Shown here: in pieces, positions 1,124 to 56,034 of the stretch
Position numbering within the stretch: position 1 is the stretch's first letter
How the letters are laid out: each line of letters opens with the position of its first letter
NCBI GenBank assembly: GCA_976551045.1
Contig: CDPCPM010000238.1
Span: forward strand, 2,666,001 to 2,730,000
Source: Glaucostegus cemiculus
Lineage: Eukaryota
Length of the DNA stretch: 64,000 nucleotides
Direction of reading: 5' to 3'
Translations under genes and position numbers: made by a program
The notes under the pieces: model-generated
Told to the model about the DNA's origin: nothing
Databases searched by the model: none
What the model saw: the letters and a program-made list of their open reading frames with translations, nothing else

Positions 1124-1267
1124 TCATTCACGGTCCCACGTTCTCTTTGAAGTATTTACACCTGCGTACACTGAGTGCTTGTCCTGATGTTTAGGTGCTG
1201 ATGTTTTGTTGGATTTAGGAAGGTTCAGGGCGGCGTAAGTCAGTTTGTCAGCCCCGCCTCCTTTAGT
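1124..1267 (-). CDS. Copy 1 exon 7, terminal exon with ITIMs LTYAAL and SVYAGV
   Basis: TKGGGADKLTYAALNLPKSNKTSAPKHQDKHSVYAGVNTSKRTWDRE-stop; acceptor ctttcacAG; absent from the ORF track. Confidence 0.88.
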   Translation of the reverse strand, partial: TKGGGADKLTYAALNLPKSNKTSAPKHQDKHSVYAGVNTSKRTWDRE

Positions 1268-4200
1268 CTGTGAAAGTAATTCAATATCGTTTGTTATTGA
1301 ATACGGGAAGCAATCGATTTTTTAAACATCTTTGATCAGTATCAGATGGTGGCCGATTTATTAAGATCTTTTCTTACTCCGATTTTCTTATCTGATTATA
1401 CTGAGCCTTAATTCTAGGAGCCATTCCAGGCTCCACAGAGCAACGTTTACTTCCGTATTTACTATTGATATGTTAGGATGTTGACAGTGTAATCTATCTG
1501 AAGAAACAGGTAAACACTTAAAGTAGCATTTATATAACTAAATTCTTAGAATGCTAAGACATTGATGCATATTTTAGCTTTCGGCATCTGTTCCCAGAAA
1601 ACTGCTCATATAGTGGGAGAGCGGTGTTACTGACGGGGCTGCTGTGCTGGGGACCAAGTTAAGGAAAGACACTTCGCTGGCGCTCCGATCTCAATTAAAG
1701 AAGTCAGCGATCCAGTCGCCGCGTGGTCCGATGTGGAGTTAGCCACCCTAATGTGCAATGGTTATTTGTGAGGGTTGTTATTGGGCAAGATGGGTGGTGC
1801 AGGGGGGCCGAGAGTGGCTGTGATGCAAGGCTCAGTGCTGAATCTTGGGCGGCAAGGTAAGTGCGGACCAATGGTACTGACAAGCTTCAGACCACCCGAA
1901 TCCCACAATCCCTGCCATCGCCTCCGGCTGGGGGTGATGCAAGTTGCTGATTACCCTTTTTCCCAGCCCCGAGATTTCTCTGTGTTCACAAGGGACCACA
2001 CTAAGGTTACTGTATCCGAACCTCAGGGTTTGGAGAAGTGTTCTGCCAAAAAAAGAGAGGCATCGAACAGGAGGTGATGGGCAGACCCTTCTCACGCCAG
2101 TCCAGAGGAATGATGCCTGGACTGAAGGGACTGAGTTGCAAAGAGACTTTGGGAAGACTGGAGACACAGATGCTGGGATATGGAGCAACAACCAAAATGC
2201 TGGAGGAACTCAGTGGGTCAGGAAGCATCTGTGAAGGGAAATGGACAGTCGCCGTTTCTGGTGGAGACCTTTCAAGTCATCTGCACTGATGAAGGGTCAG
2301 GATGAAGGGTCTCAATCTGAAAGATGAACAGTTCATTAACCTCCACAGATACTGCCCGCTCCGCTGAGTACCTCCAGCATTTTGTTTGTTACAATGGGTA
2401 GGTTGGTTCTGACTTCCCTGGAATGAAGGGGGTTGAACGGTGACTTTATAAAGGGCTATAAAATTATAAGGGGGTGTGGATAGGGTAGATAATCAGTCTT
2501 TTTCCCATGGCCGGGGAGTCTAGAAAAAGAGGATAGATGTGGGAGTCAGAAGATTGAAAAGGGATCAGAGGGGCAAGTTTTCCACACAGAGAGTGCTGGG
2601 TATATGGAACGAGCTATCAGAAAATGTGGTAGAGGCAGGTAATATTACAGCATATAAAAGACATTTGGACAGGTACGTGGATAGGAAAGGTTTAGAGGCA
2701 TATGTGCCAAACTCAGGCAAATGGGATTAGCAGAGATAGACATCTAGTTCGGCACTGACGAGTTAGTAGAATGGCCCATTTCCGTGCTGTACGATTCCAT
2801 GAATCCCTCGGGTATACCTGGGAATAAATGACATGTTCCTCCTGGCGTCGACCTTTGGTAAATCCTTTGTCCGCTCTCAAGTTTAGTGTAGCGTAGGCAG
2901 TGGTATGTTTAACTGGTGCTTGTCTAGCCTGTTCCAATAAGACATTTAACACTGTTAGCGGCGAGTCTGATGGAGCGGATAGCTGCCTTAAGCTAGAACG
3001 GAATCTTAATTTGTAAACACACAGATCGATAAAATTGGGGCCCAGTAACATTCTACAATCAATGACAGTGCCCAGTATCTTACACGTGGGAGGATGTAAA
3101 TTTCTAAATGTAAATACTTTGGCTCTCAAGTCAGAATGGCTTTCAAGCTACAGCTTAAAATTTACCCTGTGAATAATATAAACTTCTCAATTCCAGCATC
3201 CCCTCCTTCCCCCTTATCTTTATCTTTCGACTTTCCAAAATATTTTTTTGTTGTTGTTGAATGCAGTGGCATCGGTCCCCTTCTCTTTCTCAGCGAGCAT
3301 GGTCTCTTGAAGTGGTCAAGAGCAGGGTCAGAGACTGACGTTTGCCTTATTCATTTCCCGGTACTTATAACCCTAGGTCTCTAACAGAATGTATGATCTA
3401 ATCACTCCCCCCTTTCCCATTTTCTAATTTAGGGATACCGGGGAGACCTGAAGCACTGTTCCAGACGGACGGACAGTCTTCCGCCTCTTCCTATCTATTT
3501 GGTTCCCTTGCGGAATAATTCCATGAAGGAAGTTAGGGTCTGGTGAGATACTTACGATTGAAACAGGGAAGGGAATTGGATAGACATGCCGCGTTAACTA
3601 CAGATATTTATTTTGGCATGACTAAAGCATGGCGTACAGAAGGAAGAAGTATTCCTATAGGTCACTTACTGGGTCTCAGCTGAAATATTGCACTAAAATC
3701 TGGGCACAACATCCTGAGAAAAAAATGTCTAGATCTGGGGAAAAAAGTTGCGAAGGAAATGTTTTAGTATGACACCAGCGATGAAAGACTAACTTATGCC
3801 AAGGATATCTAAAGCAGTTGTGATCGTTCTGCTTGTATCAGCTAGGATTAAAGACGTAATAAATATTTGAAGGATTTTGAATGAGTACTTACGGAGGAAC
3901 TATTTGCGCTACTAAATGAGTGAGTATACAAATGATATAAGAAATTTGCCAGAAGAATTGAAGAAAGATGTCGGGAATATTTTTATTTTTCTCAGTCATA
4001 GTTTCAGGATTGAGGACGTGTTGCTTCAACTCTGTTTCTGAGTAAGGGAACGGGTTTTTGTGTGAATTCTTTTAATGGAGATGGCTGTTGGACACCAGTC
4101 AACAAACGGTCTTGACAGAGGAGATCTAATTGGCAAGCCATTGTCAAGCAGATTCAAGACGGCTGGAAACAAGATTCTGCTGCACAGCCGTTACTTTGGT

Positions 4201-7200
4201 ACAGGGACCAGAACTGCACAGGAACCGCCCAACAAGGGTTTACCAATGGGATTATCAGCGCCTCAGCAAGAATCGCTACCTTTGCACCCCCCCCCCCCCC
4301 CCACAACTTTGTAATATATTTCAACATATCATTTGTCTTGTTAATTGCTTGGTAAATTTTCAGTCCGATGCGCAACGGCTCTTCTGAATAATAATTATTA
4401 AATTCACATCACTCAGGAAGTAATCCTTTTTTTCTATTCTTGCAACTTCGCACTTTGTCTTCTGCTTAATGTACATGACCTGCGGTGCATTCTTGGAACT
4501 TTTAAATAAGGATTGACAGATATTTGAAAATAAAGAGTTACGATAGACAGAATAGACACTTCTGCACCACAATAGTCTGATATTTTACTCAATGAAATTA
4601 AAAGATTGTCTGCTGAATGTAACATTTTTGAAAAAAAATCTTTGAAATATTAAGGACATTGTCACCCTACCGGTTCTGCGCTTTGACTTGGTTCCATCGA
4701 ACTTGTATTAACATCTACAAAAATAACGTGATTAGCAAAGTTTGTGATAACAATGTCAACATAATGTATTTGAAGCTCATGATATTTATTGCCTGAAGTA
4801 AGGATTCCATTTCGCGCGGATATTTTTGAAAACATTTAGCAATGCTGGTTGTTGCAAGTTTATATTTATATCTTAGCTTCTCATACTCTTTACTGATGTT
4901 GTACCTAATGTAGTGGGGCTTGACATTGAAATAGTAAAATGGTGATAGCATGCCACCAATTTTGATAGTCTCATAATTACAACGAAAATTCAAAGCACGA
5001 GGATTTAGATCAGGTCGCCTGCAAAGAAAATCAAAATCTATATCAAGTTGTTTATGATTCAAGATACTTTCAAAAATGCAATAAATGAACAATTCCAGGT
5101 GGTTGAAAAATTGAGGTGTAGAAGATGAATGATTAATTGGAATGAGAAGATGAATTTTTATTTTAAGTTCCACTTCATTTTGTCAGAATCAGCTATCAGA
5201 CACATGATGCTTTTGTTATGCCAGCTTAATAATTAACAATGTTTTTTATTCTTCTATAGTCGATTAGCATTAACCTGCTGCTCCTGTTTGTTAAAAATAC
5301 AATTAAGATGTTAACGCATTTCGTTTAATAAATGAAGGTCTTACCACATGACGCCTTTAATCTCCGTATTGTCAGAATTATAATTAGAACTAAAATTGCC
5401 AACCCGCCCGCTGCACACCCGAGAATCAGGACAATATGAGGCTCTACAGGAGAAACAGACAAATTAGAAGATGTAAAACCTATGCACATAGAGGTACACC
5501 GAGGAAATTGCGAAGCAGCAAAATAGAGCATTTCACGGTTGTTTTACAATTTCCATATACCGAATGGAACCATTGCAATTTAGTGATGAAATGTAAGAAA
5601 ATCAAACAAACCCTCTTACTTAATGAGCAGGGTGCCTCTGTTTACAAATCAGGTGACTTACTAAGAGTAAAACGAGTCTTGCTTTTCTCTTTGAGTGCGA
5701 CACTAAACAGTGGGCACAAGCTTTAAAAGTTACAAAGCCTTCCATATACCAGGACTGGCACCCAACACCTGTTTCTACAGCTTTTGAGGTGTAAGAAGAG
5801 TAAGTTGCATTTACTTTTGCATTTATAACCCTCCTGGCATGTAGAAATAGTGTATACTCACAACATTTGACGGCGAATCGCAGACTAACAGATATCAGGA
5901 GAGTTGACCTGATACTGCATGTAAAGGGCATGTAAACGTAAAGAACCCGCCTTTCATCCTAAAGAACACGTGTCTTGTTCCAGTCTTCTTCTTCTATGCC
6001 CCATCGTGTCTTTTTGCAGCTCAGAGCTGATTTATTTTGCTTAGGAACGCATCTGTTAAGTACCTTGAAGCTGTGCTCTGTCACAGGCACTATCTACATT
6101 CAACTTATCAATTCATCTTACGCGGATACAGTACAGAAAACAAAATCAGCGCGGAATAATGCATTAGCTTGTTTGTAAATTGCTTTTCCATTGTGAATAA
6201 ATGCGGTTCACATTTCCTCCTCATCCCATGTTTATACAGATGTCCAGCTACATTTCCAAAACGGGTTATAGCCCTCTCTCTGTTTCCAGTCTTACCTCGC
6301 TCCACGGTGTAGTCGACTCTGGCGGGCACCGTAAGGGATTCATGCGAAACCAGGCAACTGTAAACGTCGTTGCTCCAGGCAGGCGAAGTTATTTCGAGAA
6401 AACTGGAAGCCTCATACAACCCCTCCATGCTGCGGGTTTTCACGTTTTCTATCCCGGTCAGAATCGTTACACCATTTCTAAGCCAGGAGAACAAACATTC
6501 CCCCGGATAAAAAGCAGCCGTTTTACACATGAGTTTTCGCGAATTCGGTGAAGCCTCTTCAACCAGAAACATTTTGAGGGGAGTTGGCCGAGCTGCAACA
6601 GAAAAATAGGTATGTTGAATGTTTTCTTGGCATGTCAATAAATACACTCTGGTTAGCCTTATCACCTCGCGATCCCGCAGTCCCACCTGCGATCGCTTCT
6701 AAACCTGTAGGTTTGGCTTTATCGTCAAATATATTCAAGCAATGCATGAGGAATGTGAAACTACTTGTAGGTACTGTGACGGGAATGCGCCGCTGTTCTG
6801 AATGGAAGTGCCGGATTTTCCACGCGGTAGCAGCTAGTAACAAACTTCAGTGTTTACTTCAAAACTAGCTATTTTTAGACGTTTATTGCAAGGAATGAGA
6901 TATGTATAATGGAGTGTCGTAGCGACAGACAGCACAGAAATCAGTATGAACCCCCCCCCCCCCCCGGGTTCACACTAACCATTAAGCATTCATCTCCACT
7001 TATCCCATTTTCATCCAGCATCCCGATAAACTAGCCCCATCCTTGCCCTTCAGTAGGTACTTATCCCGCCAGCCAGCATCCTTTGGCATTTGGAAGAGAC
7101 CGGATCTCCGGAGGAAAATCCACGTGTGCACAGGGAGAATGTGAAATTGCAGGCAGAGAGCTCCCAAGGACATGATCGAACCTGCCGGCTGAAGCTGCGG

Positions 7201-9644
7201 ACAGCTGTGCTAACCAATGCGGAGCTGCATATATCGCACAGTCTGTAGCCGAGAGACAGGATTTGGTTACATGGATGGATTAGAGTTTGAGCTTTACTAT
7301 AGTTTCGGCAGCTGTTCGGTGCCCTGGATGGAGATGTCAGTGACCTCAATGTTCACTGGGAGGGTTTTCCCCAGAACGCGATCTGACCGTTGTTGTATCT
7401 CCCAAGGCACGACAGAGTTATACTGATAATTAGTTATTGCTGTGCCAGTCGTAGAACCGATAATGATGAAGGGACGTGGATCAGGAATCCAAACTCACAG
7501 CGCATTTGTCCTGCACTGTTGCCCTTTCTAATACGTACAGTGTTGAGTTGAACACATTTAGTCTGAATAGCTTCTACTGATATCAGCTCTATATTTGTCA
7601 TTTGCGAACATTGGTCTGCGTCAGTAAGATCTACAATCGGTGCTTAACTGGGATGAGAAACTATTTTTGAGGTGGTTTCAGAGTTTCTCACAAGCAATCT
7701 GTTTATTGTCTTAGTTTTTAACCTTCTTTAAGTTGTCTTCGTAACAACTCATTTATCAGCATTATTCTGAACTTCGGAAGAAACTGCAGTCTTTATTTCT
7801 CGGCCTCACTCAGTGCTCTGCCAGTTGAAGCTCAGAAGTTCTCCACGACATGACACGGACCTATTCTCTCTCAAACAAATATTTGGTGAGAGGTTTAGCG
7901 GAAAGCGCCGTTCTCTTCTCTCTCCAGAACTTCAGCCTCGGGTTTGAGTCGTGTAAAGAGAAATCACGAGGTGCAAGGACAGGAGCGCAGGCGCTTCCCC
8001 GAGAAACTGCTGCATCCTGCCGGTGTGTTGCAGAGGTTGAGTGTACAAAGGAAATCCTCTTGGAGTGAGACAGATGGAAATACGGGGATATTCGGTTCTG
8101 GGACTCAGGACTTGGATACCCCGACGACAAGCATCAAACCGCACCTCTCAACAGGTTATAAGATTCCTTTGTAAAATAACCATGGTGGTATGAAACGGGT
8201 TTCAGCTTCGGTTACAGACCGAGGACAAAGAGTAGATCATCCGAACCTGGAGGCCGCTCCGGTGTTCAGACAGTTCGCAGATGATTTGCGTGTCAGCCCC
8301 AATAACTGCATACCCTGCGACACCAAATCCGAACAAAACAGCTACACCTTAATCCTGAGAGGTCCATATGTTCATCTGTTTCCAGGGTGTAAGGGAAAAT
8401 AGTCCCAGATTTCCGAGAATTCGGCGTAAGAGCTACTGGATTTTCGATTGAAGCCCTGGCGCCAAAAACAGAACTCGTTTGTGAATTAACACAGACCGTG
8501 GGTGTACACTGTTCTTCTTAGAATGTTACTACTATGGTCTGGGGTGGAATGGTTGGTTTTTAATATTGCTTAAATTAACCGAATCAGGCTGAAGATGTTA
8601 ATATTATTGCCTTGTGTTGTGAAGAGAAATCTGTACTTCCAGTCAGAGCCACCATTCCCACATCCATACCGCTTCAAAACCTTCCTTGAAAAACGATTCT
8701 AACAAAATTCTAATGTGAGTCATTGGATTAAAAACACTCTAGCATTTCATGGGAATAATACAGTTTGAATCTGAATCCTGGGTAATAGAGTAAAATCGGT
8801 ATCGCGAATCAACCGGATGTTAATGGAAAAGACCCTCTATGGAAACACGGAATGAGAAACAGCACAAGTTTTCTCGTTCCACAGTTGCTGCCTGAGGTGG
8901 TGATTATTTCCAGAGAATTCAGATTTTCGGTCCGTTGCTCAGTTTGCTTTTGTAGTTTAAACCTGGATCAGTTATTATCGGGTTTCCCCCGAGTGACAAA
9001 CGTTCATAATACGCTCATCAGCGACCTTATTTTATATCGCAGGGAGCTCGAGTTCCCCCACTTACAGGACACTTACCGTACACAGTGAGGTTGGAGCCTG
9101 CTCCATCTCCGATAGACTGTTGCTGAGTTTTCACTTTGCAGTAATAGATCCCGGAGTCTGTAGCTCTGGCATTCAGGATAACGAAAGAGGCGCTGCCCCT
9201 ACTAACAGTAAATTGTTTTCTGCTGTCTGGTTCGACAGGTCTCTTCTCGCACCATTTCCACCAAGAAACGTTAGGAACAGTTTGTTGAATGGAGAATAAG
9301 CAGGACATAGAAACATTGTCTCCGCCGTGGACGGTCAGGTTTGCAGGGAATTGGTTCACTTTGCTCGATGTTACGTCGACGGCTGCCAGAAAATAAGCGA
9401 GAACATTGAAAACCGTTGCGCAAAGCGGAGAAGGAAAAAAAATATAACCACGAGGTGCAAAACAGAAAGATAATTTAGAAGCAACAAGCGACTGGAGAAG
9501 CACTGTAAGTAAATTCGCGGTGGGTAACCAATGTGGAATATTCTAAACAGTGTTTGATACACGGAAACAGCACAAATAACCGAATGTACCCTGCCAAACT
9601 GTAGCCAGAAGAGTCATGTACCGAACTGATGCTTTAACCAACAT
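1124..9644 (-). CDS. IgSF inhibitory receptor, SIRP-like VJ-C1-TM-ITIM, copy 1 (7 exons, 351 aa)
   Basis: Exons 9590-9644, 9077-9382, 6296-6592, 5345-5443, 4671-4714, 2818-2928, 1124-1267. All introns GT-AG, phases 1,1,1,1,0,0; the joined 1056 nt is open to TGA. Confidence 0.9.
2160..2390. mobile_element. Fold-back repeat, probably Penelope-terminal-repeat derived, nested in a CR1 fragment (also ~17460, ~32820, ~48130)
   Basis: Inverted arms caaaatgctggaggaactcag (2193) and ctgagtacctccagcattttg (ends 2384), with central ctgatgaagggtc. Confidence 0.7.
2391..2800 (+). mobile_element. CR1 LINE 3' end fragment (also ~17690-18100, ~33050-33460, ~48355-48770)
   Basis: FSTQRVLGIWNELSENVVEAGNITAYKRHLDRY matches the CR1 ORF2 C-terminus. 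Confidence 0.85.
2818..2928 (-). CDS. Copy 1 exon 6, cytoplasmic tyrosine motifs TAYATL and VIYSQ
   Basis: ARQAPVKHTTAYATLNLRADKGFTKGRRQEEHVIYSQ; acceptor gaacAG, donor GTATAC. Confidence 0.85.
3620..4030 (+). mobile_element. Highly decayed CR1-like fragment
   Basis: cagctgaaatattgcactaaaatctgggcac resembles the CR1 LEYCVQFWAP region; boundaries approximate. Confidence 0.5.
4671..4714 (-). CDS. Copy 1 exon 5, short cytoplasmic exon DVNTSSMEPSQSAEP
   Basis: tttttgtAG acceptor, GTAGGG donor; 44 nt converts phase 1 to the phase 0 required by the next exon. Confidence 0.8.
5345..5443 (-). CDS. Copy 1 exon 4, transmembrane segment
   Basis: EPHIVLILGCAAGGLAILVLIIILTIRRLKASC: hydrophobic run then basic stop-transfer residues; AG/GT flanked, 99 nt. 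Confidence 0.92.
6296..6592 (-). CDS. Copy 1 exon 3, Ig C1-set domain
   Basis: LMCKTAAFYP...SWLRNG...YSCLVSHESL are C1-set hallmarks; acceptor ttgcAG, donor GTAAGA. Confidence 0.95.
6925..7222 (-). mobile_element. V-SINE/HE1-like SINE, antisense, in the V-C1 intron (also ~22220-22515, ~37585-37880, ~53400-53715)
   Basis: ccggaggaaaatccacg...cacagggagaatgtgaaa...gatcgaacc...gtgctaacca is the reverse complement of the tRNA head plus V core. Confidence 0.75.
9077..9382 (-). CDS. Copy 1 exon 2, VJ-type Ig V domain
   Basis: B-strand Cys (VSMSC), C-strand WW, DSGIYYC, J-like GDGAGSNLTV; acceptor ttttctggcAG, donor GTAAGT. Confidence 0.95.
9590..9644 (-). CDS. Copy 1 exon 1, leader peptide MLVKASVRYMTLLATVWQ
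   Basis: ATG, 55 nt, phase-1 donor GTACAT; exon conserved in divergent copy 4. Confidence 0.8.
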
Positions 9645-9770
9645 ATTGCAAAACATTGATTTGGCCCCTTGCTGCGAATGAGGGAAGTGACCTCAACGGT
9701 CCGTGTAAGAACCTGTATTCATGAGCAACTATTTGACGCTTGAGATAGTGACATAGAATATCACATGACT
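9645..9770 (-). promoter_or_regulatory. Putative proximal promoter/5' UTR with ETS-like (GAGGGAAGTG) and C/EBP-like (ATTGCAAAA) motifs
   Basis: Motifs lie within ~50 nt of the ATG in copies 1-3; the ETS core is altered in copy 4. Motif match only. Confidence 0.35.
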
Positions 9771-11269: not shown

Positions 11270-11935
11270 TCTGAGCACACTTCCAGTTGAGCAGAGATTT
11301 TCCTCCATCCTGGTTTATCTCATCGTTGCTGGCGATGGGGCCTCCTTTACGTTGGTGAAACCAAGCGTAGACTTGTTGAACATTTTGCAGAGTACCTGCC
11401 GTCTGTCAGAAATAGCCATCTTGAGTTTCCCGCTGCATGTAATTTCAACTCTCCCTCCCGTCCCCATACCAACCTATCTGTCTTTGGCCTTCTTCACTGC
11501 CGCAGTGAGTCCAGCGCAAACTAAAAGTACAGCACTTCAAATTCGACTCAGATGGCATGAAGATGGAATTTTCTATTTTTGGGTAACCCACTCAGCCCTT
11601 GCTCCTTTCTCACTCCAAGGTTCTCTCTCCCTTTGTTTACTTCTACCATCCCCCCCCCCCGTTATTTAGACATCACCCTCCCAAACCTGGTTCCTCCCAT
11701 CTGTCCATCATCCCTCACTTATCTGGTTCCACTTAGTACTTACCACCCCCTATCTCACCCCTCCCTCTCACTTCTATATACTACCTTCCATCTACACTCT
11801 CAGCCCTGATGCAGGGTCTTGACTCCATATCTCAGCCATCCGATTGTCTCCACAGACTCTGCTCGACCTGCTGAGTTCCTCCACTAGTTCAATTTATTAT
11901 GCCAGATTCCAATATCTGCAGTCTCTCTTGTTTAC
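11270..11935 (+). mobile_element. Penelope-like element 3' remnant with GIY-YIG endonuclease fragment (also ~26630-27295, ~41960-42620)
   Basis: One frame reads GLLYVGETKRRLVEHFAEYL, followed by a pyrimidine-rich tract and the gacctgctgagttcctcca terminal motif. Confidence 0.8.
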
Positions 11936-14809
11936 AAAATCTACATCTCGATCAGTTGTTCAAAAATGTTTTCTTGCCGAAATCATTTTGTAAATGAAAT
12001 GCAGAAATTATAATAATTAAAAGTTTTCAATGCAGTTTATCGGCCTGATAGGGTTGACGACCCTTAATCAGCAATTGCCAGTTCTGATAAAACCTGAAAC
12101 TTAAAGTGGTTTCTTTGTCCACTGACGCGGCTTGACTAACTACGTTCTTCCATCATTTCTGTTTACGTTTCAGATTCCGGCATCTGCAATTTTATTTGTT
12201 CTCCACACGGTGTTCTCTTGTTGGAACCGCATGTAGTTCCGTTTCCTACCACTGGGAGGGTTTTATCACATCACTGAGATTCCCCGTTGCTCAGTGGCGC
12301 AGCTCCGATCAGCTGTGAGGGCACTAACATGAGAGGCGCAGTCTGAGTGACTGCAGCGGTTGTCCGAATTTCAGAAGCGGCGCTGTTCCCAGAGTCACCG
12401 ACACTAACGTACAGTGGGCGCTGCTGGGCGATGGAGTTCCCTTGTGGAATAAAGTGTACAGGTGACAGTGGGGTTGGAATAAATTACCTGGGATGGCATG
12501 TGCTCTAAAGGGTCGAGGATGGAGCCGGAAGGTCGGGGCGGAAGGAAGAGGCAGCCGAAGCGGGAGGTTACGGAAATTAACCCTTTGTTGCTGGAAGCGA
12601 AGGAGAAAGTGAGCGAGGCCTGGAGCCAGGTGCTCGAGTACTCGCAACGTGAGGGAAGTGCAGAGGGCCCTGGAATACGGGGCTGCAATGAGAGATAGGA
12701 GGTTCCGTGGGTGGACCAGCGGGAACATCGTGGCCGGAGTTCATGTATCAGCACGGCTCACTCTTGTACGAGTCAGACAATCATGCATTCGGGTCTATTC
12801 GAAGATTGGGGCGCCTAATCTGGGCTGAGACTTTAGTGAAAGAGAATATAAAAGCACAAGAAATAAACAAACAAATACAGTTCTCAAATCATTGTCACAC
12901 TAAAGCAAGACTTTATTACTTCAGTGCTTCAACTCTCACTGTGGCACTTGCCTCCAAATTTCTCGCTGTACTTGAGTGTTTTATTTCTGTTTCTAATGAA
13001 CCAGCGTCGAATGATTGTGTTCGCCTCCGTACTACAACGTCAACACTGACGAGTTTTGCACTGTTTAACAAATATTTCATGTTTCTGCTCTTCTTACCAA
13101 ACTGGTAAACCCAATACTTCCCCACATTATATCCCACTTGCCATCGATTTGCCTGCTCAGTCTTACTGTGTTGTGGATCCGCATTGCCCTCACAGCTCCG
13201 CGTTCACGGAGCTTTGTATAGTCAGTAAAGTTGGATACACTACACCAATTGGTAAATTCACCAATTTACATTGTAAGTAGCTGAGGCCCATATATGGGCT
13301 CCGTGTCAGATTATGACGAGTAGGGAGCCAATCTGAAAAGGTAACAACCTTAGTTTAATAGTAGTGTACCCGAGTAATCTTCCAGCAATCAGTATTTTCT
13401 CCTATTTCAGATACTATTTGTCTCCTATTGTTTAAACCTCCAACACATTTCACCACTATACCACTCTCTCGATCTTTCCTGGTGTCTGACTTATCACAAT
13501 TTCTTTTGTTCTTTCTCCACCTCCCCTCTTTCTGCATATTGTTATATTTCAACATTTTCCCAGTTCTGCTGGATGTTAATCAAACTGCAATATTAACCCG
13601 TTGTCTCTTTCCTCTTGCCTGACTTGCTGAATATTTTCAGCATTTTCTGTCCCTTTAATGGTTTTACTTTTCTGTCTGTTCCAAGTACATTTTTCGGAAC
13701 CGGCCCCGCCTACGTGCTTTATTTGAGGGCTGCACTAAAGCATGCTGAGGAAGAATTGCTGATCAGATACTAGGGTTGTTTTCTCCACTATTGTCCACTA
13801 AGATCAGACAGCGGGTGTCTTCTTCAATGTCACACAACAGCAGTGCTGCACCAAAGTGTTTGTCAGTCTAGGTGACATTTCAGTCTTATAACATGATTCA
13901 GAGGTGACAGGACTGCTACTTTCTCCAAGCACACATCTGTAGACTTCTTCCAGCCATTGAGGGGTGCTGCCTGCACCACGATGGCATGCCAGTAATTTCT
14001 CAAGGCGGGAAATGTACTCTCAGGTTCTCTGATAGGGACCTTGAGAAATTTGTGCACCACATCATCCACAGGACGAACGTCCACTGTTCAAGAGGATCAG
14101 GGGGCGCAGGCACGAGGGGTGTAGCTATTGTGATTGAAAACTTAGGGAGCGTTTTGTCAGGCCCATGCTCCCGTCCTCCTCCCCATGTAGTTGTTGACAA
14201 AAATAAATAGCAACTTTCACTCACGTTTGCCGGGGTCATTTCTTGGAGCCGTTTGCAATTCTCAATCTTATATTGGGATAAAAAAAACCATTTTAGCGGA
14301 ACATAGATTTGATACAGGAGCAGAAGGTTTTACACTGGGTTAAAAAACAGGCATCCTTTCTAATATGGCACATCTGGCAAATCTAACAGCAACCTTTCAG
14401 GACTATTGCCAGATTGAAGCCTTATTTGACATCTTCCCGACGACGTGAGGGATCTGCAATGCAGAGTGAACATGTGACTGATTAATCTGATCCTCTGGGC
14501 TGATATACAAGTAGAGGAAGTGCGGTAGTGTGATGTAAAGAGGGTTAATGTCCTTCACAACCCCAATCTGGGGGTATCAGAAACCTATGAGGTGTAGCAT
14601 ATATCTGCAAAGGCACACTGGAAGGATCATGAGTTTGGGAAGTTAAGTGGTAGACTTTGTCTTCCACCGTGAGAGCAGGCCAGACACATACGTCATTGGT
14701 TATAGAGCAGTAAAAACAAGCCATTCAGTCCTCTGAGCCTGCATTAACCGTAAACGTCCATTAACCCTAATTCTACTAATTCTATATTAATCTAATTTTT
14801 GCTCTCCCA

Positions 14810-14890
14810 ACATATATATATTGATATATAAATATAATGTATTATATAAATAGAATATAATATACTTATATAAATATATAATAGATAATC
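14810..14890. repeat. AT-rich low-complexity tract (also ~30175-30250, ~45485-45560)
   Basis: Almost exclusively A/T, degenerate (TA)n. Confidence 0.8.
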
Positions 14891-14894
14891 CATC

Positions 14895-15085
14895 TCGGCC
14901 ACTTCTCGAAGTTCACACCATCACAGAAGCCAGTCGTCAGCAAATTTGATCCACACCGCGTGATATTCAGGAAAGTATGAACCCACTAGATACATTAAAG
15001 GAAATGGCAGCAGCCAACATTCCAGCTGGAGTTCTGAAGACCTGTGCTCAAGGACTAGCCAAGCCTTTTCAGTGCAGATCTGGGT
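14895..15085 (+). mobile_element. LINE ORF2 fragment (pre-RT region)
   Basis: Decayed TPRDI...LDT...NIPAGVLKTCAQ resembles the KAMGPDNIPA-VLKTCA stretch of CR1/L2-clade LINEs. Confidence 0.6.
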
Positions 15086-22500: not shown

Positions 22501-24931
22501 TGCTAACCAATGCGGAGCTGCATATATCGCACAGTCTGTAGCCGAGAGACAGGATTTGGTTACATGGATGGATTAGAGTTTGAGCTTTACTATAGTTTCG
22601 GCAGCTGTTCGGTGCCCTGGATGGAGATGTCAGTGACCTCAATGTTCACTGGGAGGGTTTTCCCCAGAACGCGATCTGACCGTTGTTGTATCTCCCAAGG
22701 CACGACAGAGTTATACTGATAATTAGTTATTGCTGTGCCAGTCGTAGAACCGATAATGATGAAGGGACGTGGATCAGGAATCCAAACTCACAGCGCATTT
22801 GTCCTGCACTGTTGCCCTTTCTAATACGTACAGTGTTGAGTTGAACACATTTAGTCTGAATAGCTTCTACTGATATCAGCTCTATATTTGTCATTTGCGA
22901 ACATTGGTCTGCGTCAGTAAGATCTACAATCGGTGCTTAACTGGGATGAGAAACTATTTTTGAGGTGGTTTCAGAGTTTCTCACAAGCAATCTGTTTATT
23001 GTCTTAGTTTTTAACCTTCTTTAAGTTGTCTTCGTAACAACTCATTTATCAGCATTATTCTGAACTTCGGAAGAAACTGCAGTCTTTATTTCTCGGCCTC
23101 ACTCAGTGCTCTGCCAGTTGAAGCTCAGAAGTTCTCCACGACATGACACGGACCTATTCTCTCTCAAACAAATATTTGGTGAGAGGTTTAGCGGAAAGCG
23201 CCGTTCTCTTCTCTCTCCAGAACTTCAGCCTCGGGTTTGAGTCGTGTAAAGAGAAATCACGAGGTGCAAGGACAGGAGCGCAGGCGCTTCCCCGAGAAAC
23301 TGCTGCATCCTGCTGGTGTGTTGCAGAGGTTGAGTGTACAAAGGAAATCCTCTTGGAGTGAGACAGATGGAAATACGGGGATATTCGGTTCTGGGACTCA
23401 GGACTTGGATACCCCGACGACAAGCATCAAACCGCACCTCTCAACAGGTTATAAGATTCCTTTGTAAAATAACCATGGTGGTATGAAACGGGTTTCAGCT
23501 TCGGTTACAGACCGAGGACAAAGAGTAGATCATCCGAACCTGGAGGCCGCTCCGGTGTTCAGACAGTTCGCAGATGATTTGCGTGTCAGCCCCAATAACT
23601 GCATACCCTGCGACACCAAATCCGAACAAAACAGCTACACCTTAATCCTGAGAGGTCCATATGTTCATCTGTTTCCAGGGTGTAAGGGAAAATAGTCCCA
23701 GATTTCCGAGAATTCGGCGTAAGAGCTACTGGATTTTCGATTGAAGCCCTGGCGCCAAAAACAGAACTCGTTTGTGAATTAACACAGACCGTGGGTGTAC
23801 ACTGTTCTTCTTAGAATGTTACTACTATGGTCTGGGGTGGAATGGTTGGTTTTTAATATTGCTTAAATTAACCGAATCAGGCTGAAGATGTTAATATTAT
23901 TGCCTTGTGTTGTGAAGAGAAATCTGTACTTCCAGTCACAACCACCATTCCCACATCCATACCGCTTCAAATCCTTCCTTGAAAAACGATTCTAACAAAA
24001 TTCTAGTCTGAGTCATTAGATTAAAAACTCTCTGCACTTCATAGGAATAACACAGGTTGAATCTGAATCTTGGGTAATAGAGTAAAATTGTTTGCGTGAA
24101 TCAATCGGATGTTAATGGAAAAGACCCTCTGTGGAAACACGGAATGAGGAACAGCACAACTTTCCTCGCTCCACAGATGCCGCTTGAGGTGGTGATTATT
24201 TCCAGAGATTTCAGATTTTCGGTCCGTTGCTCAGTTTGCTTTTGGAGTTTAAACCGGGATCTGTTATCATCGGGTTTTTTCCGAGTGATAAACATTCATA
24301 ATACGCCCATCAGCGATCTTATTTTATATCGCAGGGACGTTAAGTTCCCCCACTTACGGGACACTTACCGTACACAGTGAGGTTGGAGCCTGCTCCATCT
24401 CCGATAGACTGTTGCTGAGTTTTCACCTTGCAGTAATAGTTCCCGGAGTCTGTAGCTCTGGCATTCAGGATAACGAAAGAGGCGCCGCCCTTTTTAACAG
24501 TAAATTGTTTTCTGCTGTCTGGTTCCACAGGTCTCTCCTCGCCCTGTCTCCACCAAGAAACGTGAGGAGCAGTTTGTGGCATGGAGAATGAGCAGAACAT
24601 AGAAACATTGCCTCCGCCGTGGACGGTCAGGTTTGCAGGGAATTGGTTCACTTTGCTCGATGTTACGTCGACGGCTGCCAGAAAATAAGCGAGAACATTG
24701 AAAACAGATGCGCCAAGTGGAGAAGGAAAAAGAACCAAGAGATGCAAAACATGAAGATAATTTAGAAACAACAAGCGACTGGAGAAGCACTGTAAGTAAA
24801 TTCGCGGTGGGTAACCAATGTGGAATATTCTAAACGGTGTTTGATACACGGAAACAGCACAAATAACCGAACGTACCCTGCCAAACTGTAGCCAGAAGAG
24901 TCATGTACCGAAGTGATGCTTTAACCGACAT
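16420..24931 (-). CDS. IgSF inhibitory receptor, SIRP-like VJ-C1-TM-ITIM, copy 2 (351 aa)
   Basis: Exons 24877-24931, 24369-24674, 21592-21888, 20640-20738, 19966-20009, 18117-18227, 16420-16563; splice sites intact, frame open. Confidence 0.9.
18117..18227 (-). CDS. Copy 2 cytoplasmic exon 6 (two Tyr motifs)
   Basis: Same as copy 1. Confidence 0.85.
19966..20009 (-). CDS. Copy 2 cytoplasmic exon 5
   Basis: Same as copy 1. Confidence 0.8.
20640..20738 (-). CDS. Copy 2 TM exon
   Basis: Same translation as copy 1. Confidence 0.92.
21592..21888 (-). CDS. Copy 2 C1 exon
   Basis: Same translation as copy 1. Confidence 0.95.
24369..24674 (-). CDS. Copy 2 VJ-type V exon
   Basis: VSMFC...VSWW...DSGNYYC...GDGAGSNLTV. 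Confidence 0.95.
24877..24931 (-). CDS. Copy 2 leader exon MSVKASLRYMTLLATVWQ
   Basis: ATG, phase-1 donor GTACGT. Confidence 0.8.
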
Positions 24932-37900: not shown

Positions 37901-40297
37901 TCTGTAGCCGAGAGACAGGATTTGGTTACATGGATGGATTAGAGTTTGAGCTTTACTATAGTTTCGGCAGCTGTTCGGTGCCCTGGATGGAGATGTCAGT
38001 GACCTCAATGTTCACTGGGAGGGTTTTCCCCAGAACGCGATCTGACCGTTGTTGTATCTCCCAAGGCACGACAGAGTTATACTGATAATTAGTTATTGCT
38101 GTGCCAGTCGTAGAACCGATAATGATGAAGGGACGTGGATCAGGAATCCAAACTCACAGCGCATTTGTCCTGCACTGTTGCCCTTTCTAATACGTACAGT
38201 GTTGAGCTGAACACATTTAGTCTGAATAGCTTCTACTGATATCAGCTCTATATTTGTCATTTGCGAACATTGGTCTGCGTCAGTAAGATCTACAATCGGT
38301 GCTTAACTGGGATGAGAAACTATTTTTGAGGTGGTTTCAGAGTTTCTCACAAGCAATCTGTTTATTGTCTTCGTTTTTAACCTTCTTTAAGTTGTCTTCG
38401 TAACAACTTATTTATCAGCATTATTCTGAACTTCGGAAGAAACTGCAGTCTTTATTTCTCGGCCTCACTCAGTGCTCTGCCAGTTGAAGCTCAGAAGTTC
38501 TCCACGACATGACACGGACCTATTCTCTCTCAAACAAATACTTGGTGAGAGGTTTAGCGGAAAGCGCCGTTCTCTTCTCTCTCCAGAACTTCAGCCTCGG
38601 GTTTGAGTCGTGTAAAGAGAAATCACGAGGTGCAAGGACAGGAGCGCAGGCGCTTCCCCGAGAAACTGCTGCATCCTGCTGGTGTGTTGCAGAGGTTGAG
38701 TGTACAAAGGAAATCCTCTTGGAGTGAGACAGATGGAAATACGGGGATATTCGGTTCTGGGACTCAGGACTTGGATACCCCGACGACAAGCATCAAACCG
38801 CACCTCTCAACAGGTTATAAGATTCCTTTGTAAAATAACCATGGTGGTATGAAACGGGTTTCAGCTTCGGTTACAGACCGAGGACAAAGAGTAGATCATC
38901 CGAACCTGGAGGCCGCTCCGGTGTTCAGACAGTTCGCAGATGATTTGCGTGTCAGCCCCAATAACTGCATACCCTGCGACACCAAATCCGAACAAAACAG
39001 CTACACCTTAATCCTGAGAGGTCCATATGTTCATCTGTTTCCAGGGTGTAAGGGAAAATAGTCCCAGATTTCCGAGAATTCGGCGTAAGAGCTACTGGAT
39101 TTTCGATTGAAGCCCTGGCGCCAAAAACAGAACTCGTTTGTGAATTAACACAGACCGTGGGTGTACACTGTTCTTCTTAGAATGTTACTACTATGGTCTG
39201 GGGTGGAATGGTTGGTTTTTAATATTGCTTAAATTAACCGAATCAGGCTGAAGATGTTAATATTATTGCCTTGTGTTGTGAAGAGAAATCTGTACTTCCA
39301 GTCAGAGCCACCATTCCCACATCCATACCGCTTCAAAACCTTCCTTGAAAAACGATTCTAACAAAATTCTAGTCTGAGTCATTAGATTAAAAACTCTCTG
39401 CACTTCATAGGAATAACACAGGTTGAATCTGAATCTTGGGTAATAGAGTAAAATTGCTTGCGTGAATCAATCGGATGTTAATGGAAAAGACCCTCTGTGG
39501 AAAGACGGAATGAGGAACAGCACAAGTTTCCTCGCTCCACAGATGCCGCCTGAGGTGGTGATTATTTCCAGAGATTTCAGATTTTCGGTCCGTTGCTCAG
39601 TTTGCTTTTGGAGTTTAAACCGGGATCTGTTATCATCGGGTTTTTTCCGAGTGATAAACATTCATAATACGCCCATCAGCGATCTTATTTTATATCGCAG
39701 GGACGTTAAGTTCCCCCACTTACGGGACACTTACCGTACACAGTGAGGTTGGAGCCTGCTCCATCTCCGATAGACTGTTGCTGAGTTTTCACTTTGCAGT
39801 AATAGTTCCCGGAGTCTGTAGCTCTGGCATTCAGGATAACGAAAGAGGCGCCGCCCTTTTTAACAGTAAATTGTTTTCTGCTGTCTGGTTCCACAGGTCT
39901 CTCCTCGCCCTGTCTCCACCAAGAAACGTTAGGAGCAGTTTGTGGCATGGAGAATGAGCAGAACATAGAAACATTGCCTCCGCCGTGGACGGTCAGGTTT
40001 GCAGGGAATTGGTTCACTTTGCTCGATGTTACGTCGACGGCTGCCAGAAAATAAGCGAGAACATTGAAAACAGATGCGCCAAGTGGAGAAGGAAAAAGAA
40101 CCAAGAGATGCAAAACATGAAGATAACTTAGAAACAACAAGCGACTGGAGAAGCACTGTAAGTAAATTCGCGGTGGGTAACCAATGTGGAATATTCTAAA
40201 CAGTGTTTGATACACGGAAACAGCACAAATAACCGAACGTACCCTGCCAAACTGTAGCCAGAAGAGTCATGTACCGAAGTGATGCTTTAACCGACAT
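31784..40297 (-). CDS. IgSF inhibitory receptor, SIRP-like VJ-C1-TM-ITIM, copy 3 (351 aa)
   Basis: Exons 40243-40297, 39735-40040, 36956-37252, 36005-36103, 35331-35374, 33479-33589, 31784-31927; splice sites intact, frame open. Confidence 0.9.
33479..33589 (-). CDS. Copy 3 cytoplasmic exon 6 (two Tyr motifs)
   Basis: Same as copy 1. Confidence 0.85.
35331..35374 (-). CDS. Copy 3 cytoplasmic exon 5
   Basis: Same as copy 1. Confidence 0.8.
36005..36103 (-). CDS. Copy 3 TM exon
   Basis: Same translation as copy 1. Confidence 0.92.
36956..37252 (-). CDS. Copy 3 C1 exon
   Basis: Same translation as copy 1 (one synonymous change seen). Confidence 0.95.
39735..40040 (-). CDS. Copy 3 VJ-type V exon
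   Basis: One amino acid different from copy 2 (PNVSWW vs PHVSWW). Confidence 0.95.
40243..40297 (-). CDS. Copy 3 leader exon
   Basis: MSVKASLRYMTLLATVWQ, donor GTACGT. Confidence 0.8.
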
Positions 40298-46700: not shown

Positions 46701-47092
46701 AGCAACTAACAGACATGAAGCCTCGGGTGGATTTGAAAACAAAAGTAGTTTTAATACGTTGAAAATAACATTATTTTTAAGAAGTTGAATAAATGGGTAT
46801 TTGCTTACAGGACGGAAGTTATCATGCGCTGACCCTGCGAAATGTTAATAACATCACACTAAATGCACGGTGCACTTCCAGAAGACAACATAAGTGGGCG
46901 AGCGCAGGATTTGAATTTGCGCCCTGCGTAAAACTGCCTTGGACGTTAAAAACGCAGGTAGCTGACGGGCCGGTTTCCAACTCCGCCAGCTTATCGGCTG
47001 ACTGCTGAAGTTGGAAAGACCTCCTCCCTGCTCCCCTGTGATGTGGATCGTCAGTCCTTCGGCCGGCAGCAACACGCGATTTGGATCCTCCT

Positions 47093-47236
47093 TCATTCAC
47101 GGTCCCACGTTCTCTTTGAAGTATTTACACCTGCGTACACTGAGTGCTTGTCCTGATGTTTAGGTGCTGATGTTTTGTTGGATTTAGGAAGGTTCAGGGC
47201 GGCGTAAGTCAGTTTGTCAGCCCCGCCTCCTTTAGT
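47093..47236 (-). CDS. Copy 4 terminal ITIM exon
   Basis: Same translation as copies 1-3. Confidence 0.88.
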   Translation of the reverse strand, partial: TKGGGADKLTYAALNLPKSNKTSAPKHQDKHSVYAGVNTSKRTWDRE

Positions 47237-53200: not shown

Positions 53201-56034
53201 GGACGGTAAAATGTATTCAAGCACTCCAAGAAAGCGCGAAGCTGGATGTCGGTAAGGTCGGGGAAATGAGCCGCTGTTCTGCAGTGCCAGGTGGAGCGCG
53301 CAGTACGAGCGAGAAGCAGCCTGTTGTGCTTATTTCAAAACTAACTATTATTTTAAGATAATCTTTGCAAAGACTGAGATATGTATAATAGACTGTCATA
53401 GAGACACACCGCACGGAAACTGGCACTACACCAGACTGCGTTCACACCGATCACTAAGGACCATTTCCACTGTTTTTCTCCAGCATCCCCATCAACCAGC
53501 CTCATCCCCCCACACCACAACACACCTACCAGGAGCAATTTACAGCAGCACATTATCCGACCAACCAGCACATATTTGGCATGTGGAAGAAACCGGAGCA
53601 CTGGAGTTCACCAGTTCACAGGGAGAATGCGCAACTACACACGGACTGTACCCGAGGTCAGGATCGAACCTGCCCATGAAGCTGTGAGGGAGCTGTGCTC
53701 ACCGATATTGCACTGTATATATCCAGATGTCACCAATGTCTTAAGTCTAGAGGCAAGGTGTAGTTACAAATATAGATTAGAGATTTGTCCTCACAGTTGT
53801 TAAGGCAGCCGTGCCGTGTCCGGGATGAAGATTTCAGATGACGCAACTTTTAACTAAGAGAGTTTTCTCCATAAGCGGACTGTGGGCTAGAAGACTTACT
53901 ATATAACTCGTAGCATCAATAAAGACGAAGGAAAGCGAATGGGAAATCCAAACTCACAGCAGATATCTTCTGCACCTTTAACTTTTCTTAAAAACACTCT
54001 GTTCGTTGAACACATTTAGTCTGGATAAGATCCGACTGATCTGTATTAGTCACGAGCGAACGCTGATTTGCGTGCGTTGGATCTACAGTCAGTGCTTGGC
54101 TGAATGGAGAGTTAATTGCTAAGCTAAAATGAGAGTTTATTACGAGAAATCTGTTTAACATCCCAGTTGTACATCTAGTTATTTTACGTTTTTGTGATAA
54201 CACATTATTGACTCGGGATCCTCATTAATTTTGGAAGAGATATCCGTCTTTCTTCTCAGCCTCAGGGAGTGCACTGCCAAACAAATTCGGAATTTCTCCA
54301 CCACTTGACCACGGATCTATTTTATGTAGAACAAATATTTTGGGGGAACTTCCGTTGAGAACACGGGTGTTGGGTCTGTAAAGGGAAATCGTGAATTACA
54401 AGGACTGGAGCCCAGGCGTTTTCCCAGGATGCCGTTAAATGTTGTTCATGTTTTACAGATGATGAGTGTATAAAGAAAATCTACTTGGAGTGAGATAGAC
54501 ACGAACACGGGGATGTTCAGTTCGCAGACTCGGATACCTCGAGGGGAAGAGTCACGCCTCTCAATGGACTGTAAGATTCCCTTGTAACATAACAATGGTA
54601 GTCTGAAACGGATTTTAGCTTCGGTTACAAACCGAGGAACAGATGCAGAGCATTTATCCCACGAAGCTTGTCCGGTGTTCAAGGAAATCTTTGAACTGTA
54701 TCTGTCCACACTGCAGACCGCGTGACACCGAACCCTAACAAAAACTTTACATCCCACTTCCAAGAGGCCGTTTTCGCTTTCCGTTTCCAGACTTTAAGGG
54801 GAAAATGTTGCAAATTTCGGAGACTTCGGCACAACAAATCCCGGATTGACAACTTGAAACAGTGGCGATAAACAGAAGACATCTGGTGTGTGGATGACAC
54901 GGATTGCGAGTGGAAACTTCGGATATTGTAACGAGGGTTGGCATGAAATTGTTGCGTCGTTATTTTTGCTTAGAGGAACCGCATTAGGCTGCAGGTGTTA
55001 ACATTCTTGCCTTGTCTCCGGTGAGGCGAAATCTGTCCCTCTCACACCAAGATTTAAATATTCATACTGCTTCAACATCTTCCCTGCAAAACGATTCGAA
55101 CACAACTTCCAATCTAAGTAATTTAATTAAAAAACTCCGGTACACAAGGGAGATAATAAAACGTGAACCGAGGTAATTGCTTACAAAATGGTAGCGTGAA
55201 TCTGCCGGATGTCAATGGAACAGGCCCTCTGGAGAACCACGAAGTGAGGAATAGCACAACATTCCTCACCCCACAGATGCTGCTCCACGTGCTGATTATT
55301 TCCAGAGATTTCCGGTTTCCAGTCCGTGCAGCGGTTTGCTTTTACAATATAAAACGGAATTAGATATTTATTGAGTTTTCGCTGAGTGATAAAAATTCAC
55401 ATTATTCCCATCACCGAGCTTTACTTATATCGCAGGAAGTCAAAATTTCCCCACTTACGGGACACTTACCGAACACAGTGAGTCTGGAGCCAGGTCCGTC
55501 TCCGATATACTGTTGCTGATCATGCACTTTGCAGTAATACATCCCGGAGTCTGCGACACTCGCATTCAGGAGAGTGAAAGTCGCTCTGCCCTTGCTAACA
55601 TTAAATTGTTTTCTGCTGTCTGGTTGTAGAGAATTCTCGCCCCATCTCCACCAAGAAACATCAGGAGTAGCTTGTGACATGGGGAATGTGCAGTACATAG
55701 AAACATTGTCTCCTCTGTGAACGTTCTTATCTTTGGGGATTTGGTCCACTCTGCTCGAAGTTACTTCTGCGGCTGCCAGAAAATAAGCGAGACCATTGAA
55801 AACAGTTGCACAAAGTGGACAAGGAAAAAGAACCAAGAGACGAAAAGGATAAACATAATTTAGAAACAGCGACAAGCGGATTGGGGAAGCACTGTCAGTA
55901 AATTCGCGGTAGTTAATCAACATGGCATTTTCTTAAACAGGACTGGGTGTTCGGAAACAGCACAAGTCACTGAACGTACCCCACCAAACTGTAGCCAGAA
56001 GAGTCAAGCACCGAACTGATGCTTTAACCGACAT
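47093..56034 (-). CDS. IgSF inhibitory receptor, SIRP-like VJ-C1-TM-ITIM, copy 4, divergent ectodomain (345 aa)
   Basis: Exons 55980-56034, 55470-55772, 52739-53032, 51270-51368, 50598-50641, 48785-48883, 47093-47236; all coding indels versus copies 1-3 are multiples of 3. Confidence 0.9.
48785..48883 (-). CDS. Copy 4 cytoplasmic exon 6 (12 nt shorter, in frame)
   Basis: ARQAQVEHTTAYATLNLRADKGRRDEEHVIYSQ. Confidence 0.85.
50598..50641 (-). CDS. Copy 4 cytoplasmic exon 5
   Basis: DVNTNSMEPSQSAEP, splice sites conserved. Confidence 0.8.
51270..51368 (-). CDS. Copy 4 TM exon
   Basis: ESHIALILGCAAGGLAIIVLIIILTIRRLKASR. Confidence 0.92.
52739..53032 (-). CDS. Copy 4 C1 exon (divergent)
   Basis: LVCKTAAFYPEKLEISWLRNG...YTCLVSHESL; donor GTGAGA. 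Confidence 0.95.
55470..55772 (-). CDS. Copy 4 VJ-type V exon (divergent)
   Basis: VSMYC...VSWWRW...DSGMYYC...GDGPGSRLTVF; one codon shorter than copies 1-3. Confidence 0.95.
55980..56034 (-). CDS. Copy 4 leader exon MSVKASVRCLTLLATVWW
   Basis: ATG, 55 nt, donor GTACGT; better conserved than its flanks. Confidence 0.82.

Follow-up and report, generated by a model that had tools for sequence, protein, structure and literature searches.

Tandem duplication, chimeric joining of ectodomains to tails and conversion of V exons have shaped a cluster of immunoglobulin-type receptor genes in the ray Glaucostegus cemiculus, and an old lineage of the ligand-binding V exon survives in one of its members, copy 1. 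This gene lies in a stretch of 64,000 nucleotides (the window; C238:2666001-2730000, where C238 is contig CDPCPM010000238.1 of the 2.85-Gb assembly GCA_976551045.1) that holds three full tandem units of 15.3 kb, mutually 99.5% identical, and a chimeric fourth gene, F. Each unit is one minus-strand gene. Copy 1, whose model is an open frame of 351 residues with all splice sites intact, is one of five tandem copies and a predicted inhibitory receptor gene with V, C1, transmembrane (TM) and immunoreceptor tyrosine-based inhibitory motif (ITIM) exons. Its product would carry four tail tyrosines, two of them in ITIM consensus. We lean towards the explanation that the array is a conversion mosaic in which selection keeps residues 21-63 of the copy 1 V domain distinct from those of its siblings. 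Positions without a contig name refer to the window.

A divergence island over the V exon of copy 1

Changes private to copy 1 span positions 8713-9319, an island of 607 bp with a sharp edge at 8713. Divergence within the island is 10.7-12.7% as compared to 0.1-1.8% in the remainder of the unit. Specifically, the intron part differs from copy 3 at 39 of 363 sites (10.7%) and the middle of the V exon (9194-9319, codons 21-63) at 16 of 126. Private changes pause between these two parts: the 3' part of the exon (9077-9193) has one difference in 117 sites from copy 3 and none from gene A, the first gene of the array. The 5' part of the exon is free of differences from copy 3 (0/63). Intron 1 of copy 1 differs from copies 2 and 3 at 11 of 197 sites (5.6%), yet from gene A at none of 202 (9383-9584). 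A reading made earlier from the letters alone (the sequence-only reading) had proposed local resistance to homogenisation at this place, and the sharp island over the V exon bears this out. The diverged flank that it had put at about 8640-9770 exists, in a narrower and patchier form: 8713-9066, then a gap, then 9194-9319.

The island is best understood as two old lineages side by side. When F and the more distant gene H are taken as outgroups, copy 1 carries the ancestral base at 11 of the intron differences and the siblings at 10 (21 agreeing sites of 38 listed); this even polarity argues against hypermutation or error. Five of 16 exon differences match outgroup F, so that the siblings have changed too. 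No donor for the intron part of the island was found in the assembly, where the best of 25 matches is 89% identical. The majority-type V and an H-like V are present in two low-depth contig sets of one sample; the bases of copy 1 occur in none of the contigs listed from those two sets, and contigs of this kind drop variants. One contig of depth 6 (run X1) has the majority-type V with one extra base change at position 9269 that would alter residue 38.

The V exon is indeed located at 9077-9382, on the minus strand and with AG/GT ends. Copy 1 and copy 3 differ there by 17 nucleotides, 16 non-synonymous and one synonymous, which change 14 residues; copy 1 and copy 2 differ by 19 nucleotides and 15 residues. 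The earlier counts of nucleotides against copy 3 and of residues against both copies were thus correct. Codons 21-63, 126 of the 306 nucleotides, contain 16 of the 17 changes (P about 1e-5 under uniform placement, for a region picked post hoc). There are six close V exons in the genome (A, B, copies 1 to 3 and H) among 18 DNA matches to the V exon. Private to copy 1 among the six are 15 non-synonymous changes at 13 residues, all in codons 21-63. The single synonymous change in the middle of the copy 1 exon is also found in H, and residue 78 is common to copy 1 and A. The claim that the V exon diversifies across the copies does not hold: 0-2 residues separate A, B, copy 2 and copy 3 from one another, and copy 1 is the sole outlier.

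The sequence-only reading had set this divergence against the invariance of the rest of the mature protein. The C1, TM and tail exons of copies 1 to 3 do have identical translations, with no nucleotide difference save a synonymous one in the C1 exon of copy 3. This identity is uninformative because it reflects recent homogenisation, the introns there being about 99.7% identical too: among copies 1 to 3 and B, the region 4300-8712 with its introns differs at 4-13 of about 4410 sites. Residue differences in V and C1 are 2/0, 14/0, 6/32, 0/0, 4/2, 20/9 and 1/1 in seven pairs from the same genome. In manta-ray proteins, 14 of 202 V residues and 4 of 196 C1 residues differ (P 0.016) in two of three pairs, pooled in this way so that no sequence is used twice and based on protein counts only; in the third pair the numbers are 9 and 5.

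The AlphaFold model of the copy 1 V domain (predicted local distance difference test score 90.5, from a 17-row alignment) has strands at residues 8-11, 14-17, 23-29, 37-42, 55-60, 63-68, 77-84, 89-92 and 96-100 and neither a C' nor a C'' strand. The changed residues fall in strand B, the BC loop, the C-D loop and the D-E turn, and none of them in the six invariant columns. Their surface exposure was deduced from the strand register and not from coordinates. The clustering from strand B onwards described earlier is confirmed, except that its 'C-C' region' is the loop between strands C and D. In distant paralogs, variability at the sites changed in copy 1 exceeds the average (P 0.039).

Proposed selection on residues 21-63 and competing explanations

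Between copies 1 and 3, non-synonymous divergence (dN) of the V exon is 0.071 and synonymous divergence (dS) 0.015 by the Nei-Gojobori method. Under an intron-derived, transition-weighted null, the probability of at most one synonymous change in 17 is 0.026 at a dN/dS ratio (omega) of 1 and 0.0005 at omega 0.48, the mean over 118 distant V pairs. On the copy 1 branch, where no synonymous change is placed, omega is above 1 (P 0.019 against omega 1, 0.003 against background). The comparison of copy 1 with gene A is the sole fair internal contrast of V and C1, and it gives 16 non-synonymous and one synonymous change in V as compared to none and six in C1 (P 7e-5). In codons 21-63 the amino-acid rate is at or above neutral, against a family background omega of 0.48-0.57. 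In comparison with C1 and with the family, these residues have clearly been released from constraint. That they are under positive selection is favoured but borderline, for a region picked post hoc.

A number of results weigh against selection as the keeper of the difference. Fisher's one-sided test of the 16:1 ratio gives P 0.073 for the whole exon and 0.12 for its middle. Over the whole exon dN is lower than divergence of the adjacent intron (16/235, 6.8%, versus 10.7%; P 0.11), and in codons 21-63 it is 14.5%, which is not significantly higher than the intron value (P 0.30). It is the synonymous rate that is in deficit, 1/68 in the exon versus 39/363 in the intron (P 0.011). Gene conversion confined to the exon produces an abnormally low dS of this kind (1.5%), and the high dN/dS ratio stems largely from this deficit. 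Site models, like the branch test above, were run with a purpose-written GY94 script on 15 rows each for V and C1; IQ-TREE supplied the fixed topology and relative branch lengths, and the rows exclude the broken exons I and Kp, the distant S and identical sequences. The one-ratio omega (M0) is 0.57 for V and 0.48 for C1. No site class with omega above 1 was detected in the 15 paralogous V exons (M7/M8 P 0.74, M8a/M8 P 0.5) or in the C1 exons (P 0.25 and 0.06, respectively). Diversifying selection as read from the sequence was to be judged by M7 versus M8 across paralogs and alleles, and at the level of the family this comparison goes against it; what is left is a weak signal between copy 1 and its siblings. 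Moreover, tree-based selection tests are unreliable under gene conversion. In a second array of the same contig, S3 and S5 have V dN 0.186 and dS 0.244 (dN/dS 0.76) with C1 dS 0.057, and S1 and S3 have identical V exons with seven non-synonymous and six synonymous differences in C1. Such swaps without excess dN indicate that a contrast between V and C1 arises from recombination alone. Finally, G44C replaces a glycine found in 17 of 17 other intact V exons compared and results in an extra cysteine, and 36 bp have been lost near the start of the gene; both would fit a decaying gene.

We nevertheless favour a mosaic of conversion and selection as the explanation. The V exon and adjoining intron of copy 1 would descend from a lineage older than the homogenised flanks. 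Gene conversion would erase the remaining differences while selection likely maintains the difference at residues 21-63. Unequal crossover in the intron between the C1 and TM exons may create matched inhibitory and activating pairs, and conversion may re-match the V exons of such pairs. By analogy with the counterbalance model, a ligand, probably a pathogen protein exploiting the inhibitory receptor, would favour an inhibitory copy with an altered outer surface, a description that copy 1 would fit.

The most serious competitor, which we hold possible and somewhat doubtful, is a single recent conversion or double crossover in which copy 1 received about 600 bp of a divergent allele or paralog, with no selection keeping the island. 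The residue changes would then have arisen in the donor at surface sites under weak constraint, and chance would partly explain why codons 21-63 lack synonymous changes. The sharp edge at 8713 agrees with this, as do the V-centred exchanges common in the cluster (H, A, F/G and S3). In the middle of the exon neither non-synonymous (P 0.30) nor synonymous changes (P 0.50) depart from the intron rate, and 44% of V sites act neutral under M8a. On the other hand, the lack of a donor in this assembly speaks against such an import. With omega set to 1, the probability of at most one synonymous change in 16 is still as low as 0.05; with the family omega it is 0.002. The V exon of the donor would itself need 13 residue changes in 43 codons.

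Loss of constraint on a redundant duplicate, with copy 1 turning into a pseudogene, is unlikely. Besides G44C, the changes F26S and K61R at conserved V sites, the deletion upstream of the ATG and two changes in the leader would fit such decay. However, frame and splice sites are intact, the 16 changes include no stop, frameshift or core change, the part from C1 to the tail is unchanged, and the match of some exon differences to F means that the siblings changed as well. An assembly or polishing error is very improbable; near-identical tandem units of this length are hard to assemble and a chimeric join of two real haplotypes could still yield an island, but the differences are substitutions that favour transitions (25:14), leave the frame intact and match outgroup bases in about half of the cases, unlike errors. 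Least probable of all is that a lymphocyte clone with AID-type somatic hypermutation was captured: tandem changes are a feature of hypermutation in sharks, the island lies 0.3-0.9 kb behind the ATG and several adjacent double substitutions occur in it, but the even polarity fits two old lineages and not one mutated copy, and adjacent pairs are about as frequent as the density of 11% predicts (hand estimate).

Paired receptors in the cluster and their relation to known systems

Genes B to F carry ITIM tails. Gene A, which like B lies beyond the start of the window, is the predicted activating twin of the array: it differs from B by two residues in V and none in C1, and the identity ends in the C1-TM intron. 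Gene G, also outside the window, is built like A, with an arginine in the TM exon and the shared six-codon last exon. In receptors of the NKp30 and LILRA type a TM arginine recruits an activating adaptor, and the same is predicted for A and G. A catshark relative (P0116) likewise has a TM arginine and a short tail. An ITIM-bearing look-alike of the last exon 10 kb behind A was taken as a putative remnant, since a stop-carrying exon closer by is common to A and G. In F, the 5' 4.3 kb are 96.5% identical to G, with identical V, and the 3' 5.6 kb are 94.5% identical to copy 3. There are thus two matched pairs of inhibitory and activating type, A with B and copies 2 and 3, and G with F, and no TM-arginine twin for copy 1 is among the genes examined. 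Near-identical binding domains on genes with opposite signalling ends are what defines paired receptors, and the ray genes show this arrangement, with the signalling predicted from sequence.

Exon-limited conversion occurs in the cluster, as gene H indicates. Codons 8-101 of its V exon are 1-3% from B in the midst of flanking introns that are 12-30% apart, and dS of its C1 exon is 0.46. Together with the chimeras A, F and S3, H points to conversion and recombination centred on the ligand-binding exon. In the second array, three C1 types go with four V exons that are identical to one another, and a near-identical C1 goes with one V exon that is only 70% identical.

Searching the genome for C1 gave at least 59 matches, of which C238 holds 32 and the first part of contig C53 another 23, and we put the family at about 55 C1 exons. 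The 23 on C53 lie at C53:43000-710000 and may continue the C238 cluster. Broken members were seen at C238:2787684-2787979, 2838176-2838433, 2754964 and 2631021. One V has a frameshift and another V has stops; the others are an orphan TM exon with arginine and a stop, and an orphan ITIM last exon. All are signs of birth and death.

The domain order is a V domain (Pfam V-set/I-set, VJ-type) followed by one C1-set domain. Shark VNAR domains are the best Foldseek matches of the V model, and no SIRP chain is among the listed ranks (41 rows to rank 50). One relative hits SIRP-alpha with E 2e-13, and antibody chains do at least as well. Among 150 listed HMMER matches, 11 are single-domain at 43-62% identity; eight of ten relatives checked are named, and all are from sharks or rays and annotated as SIRP-alpha-like, NCR3LG1-like or uncharacterised. 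With a horn-shark homologue as the query, the nearest Atlas matches are SIRP-alpha clusters (0.96). Word-indexed protein searches gave no match at E 0.001 (73 and 1 candidates). The likeness to SIRP-alpha noted in the sequence-only reading is retained, the nearest relatives being annotated as SIRP-alpha-like.

Mammalian SIRP genes adjoin NSFL1C and SNPH. In the ray, the genes flanking the cluster at a distance of 130-165 kb are an Ndr-family gene and BBS2 (L060:4129-4440, L063:2080-2403), a neighbourhood that we take to resemble human 16q. SEP-domain matches are on contigs C7 and C37 and syntaphilin matches on C7 and C604, and none is on C238. Gene order would point against direct SIRP orthology, although the SEP loci found number only two and the units compared are contigs, not chromosomes. 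An open reading frame at about 2.606 Mb of C238 resembles AMFR exon 1 but has no Pfam or PDB match, and it was left aside.

SIRP-alpha and SIRP-beta share with the ray genes an ectodomain of V and C1, a multi-tyrosine inhibitory tail and about 13 differing surface residues in the N-terminal domain; the source reports that the 13 residues differing between SIRP-alpha alleles leave CD47 binding unchanged and proposes pathogen pressure (PMC3974974). The ray genes differ in having one C1 domain instead of two, a shorter V without C' and C'' and with VNAR as the best structural matches, and variants that are paralogs in one haplotype, not alleles. Given the single C1, the short V and the different neighbours, we call the family SIRP-like, not SIRP.

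The closest parallel in evolutionary pattern is in frogs. For Xenopus ceacam pairs, the source describes conversion limited to the N exon, missing synonymous changes and a later accumulation of non-synonymous ones, in inhibitory and activating partners (PMC5112662). Restriction of conversion to the binding exon, near-absence of synonymous change and the existence of partners are common to both. That family is unrelated, its activating tail has an immunoreceptor tyrosine-based activation motif, and its changes map to the CC'C''FG face; in the ray, partners are co-oriented and result, too, from exchange of the entire ectodomain at the C1-TM intron, the TM arginine is the predicted route of activation, and the changes of copy 1 lie elsewhere on the domain. 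Local divergence islands in homogenised tandem duplicates are also described for exon 5 of the red and green opsins, where divergence peaks are read as marks of selection in converting duplicates (PMC3924837), and for bovine CEACAM32 (PMC7042247). The island of copy 1 differs from these in running 360 bp into one intron and ending sharply.

The second domain of NITRs is an I domain, and membership of the ray genes in that family was rejected because their second domain is C1-set by Pfam. NITRs, UrIg and PRARP resemble the ray genes in having a single VJ-type exon, and NITRs too form inhibitory and activating clusters; NITRs are reported to be absent from chondrichthyans, and UrIg differs in being linked to the major histocompatibility complex and in having three C1 domains (PMC10751288, bioRxiv 10.1101/2021.06.11.448072). 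No description of this shark and ray family was found in the literature searched, most subscription papers being outside its reach.

Paired receptors of frogs and mammals already exhibit this evolutionary pattern, of which the present family with its pairs is a new instance. The selection signal is modest and of a textbook kind, with the caution that a contrast of V with C1 and a high dN/dS in such arrays can stem from recombination and synonymous loss. What makes it valuable is the access it gives to a chondrichthyan cluster of paired receptors. Two matched pairs and one unmatched inhibitory variant let counterbalance, so far known from mammals and frogs, be asked about in the oldest lineage with adaptive immunity. 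Only tentatively do we propose, as one joint reading, that the C1-TM intron is a hot zone turning one ectodomain inhibitory or activating in both directions, that copy 1 is a pathogen-escape variant preceding its activating twin, and that the family in sharks and rays is large (about 55 loci here), of a VNAR-like V-C1 type and so far machine-annotated only. If this is true, a counterbalance arms race would exist at the base of the jawed vertebrates in a SIRP-like family, and the array would be a natural test set of five genes differing at 13 surface residues.

Feature coordinates and minor observations

Table 1. Features of copy 1 and of related genes (window positions unless a contig is given)
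Feature	Position	Strand	Remarks
Copy 1 leader exon	9590..9644	-	found by alignment; two non-synonymous differences from copies 2 and 3
Copy 1 intron 1	9383..9589	-	
Copy 1 V exon	9077..9382	-	101 codons, single exon, J-like G-x-G end strand, AG/GT ends
Diverged middle of copy 1 V exon, codons 21-63	9194..9319	-	
Diverged intron part of island	8713..9076	-	sharp end at 8713
Copy 1 C1-set exon	6296..6592	-	Pfam C1-set E 1e-11
Copy 1 TM exon	5345..5443	-	hydrophobic run without charged residue
Copy 1 short cytoplasmic exon	4671..4714	-	
Copy 1 cytoplasmic exon with two tyrosines	2818..2928	-	TAYATL; VIYSQ at donor
Copy 1 last coding exon	1124..1267	-	two ITIM-consensus motifs (LTYAAL, SVYAGV) and stop; junction agrees with annotated relatives
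Copy 2 V exon	24369..24674	-	majority type
Copy 3 V exon	39735..40040	-	majority type
Paralog F V exon	55470..55772	-	chimeric gene
36-bp deletion site	9769..9770	-	copy 1 only; about 125 bp upstream of ATG
Gene F	45970-56160		V-C1 half G-like, TM-tail half of copy 1-3 type; 12-bp deletion in ITIM-region exon
Gene A	C238:2639700-2645300		first in array; majority-type V, identical C1 protein, arginine in TM, six-codon last exon
Gene H	C238:2760138-2769943		majority-type converted V on distant C1 (69% identical); ITIM tail ends few codons early
Second array	C238:3146700-3239400		five genes at intervals of about 19-28 kb; broken C1 remnants between them on the opposite strand

The 36 bp missing in copy 1 belong to the stretch that separates the 5' end of the gene from a short repeat element; they are partly conserved in F, H and P. 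Their loss may affect expression of copy 1. The spacer between genes (11600-14900) occurs as two haplotypes about 2% apart, one in A, copy 1 and copy 2 and the other in B and copy 3, and this points to patchwork exchange outside the coding exons too.

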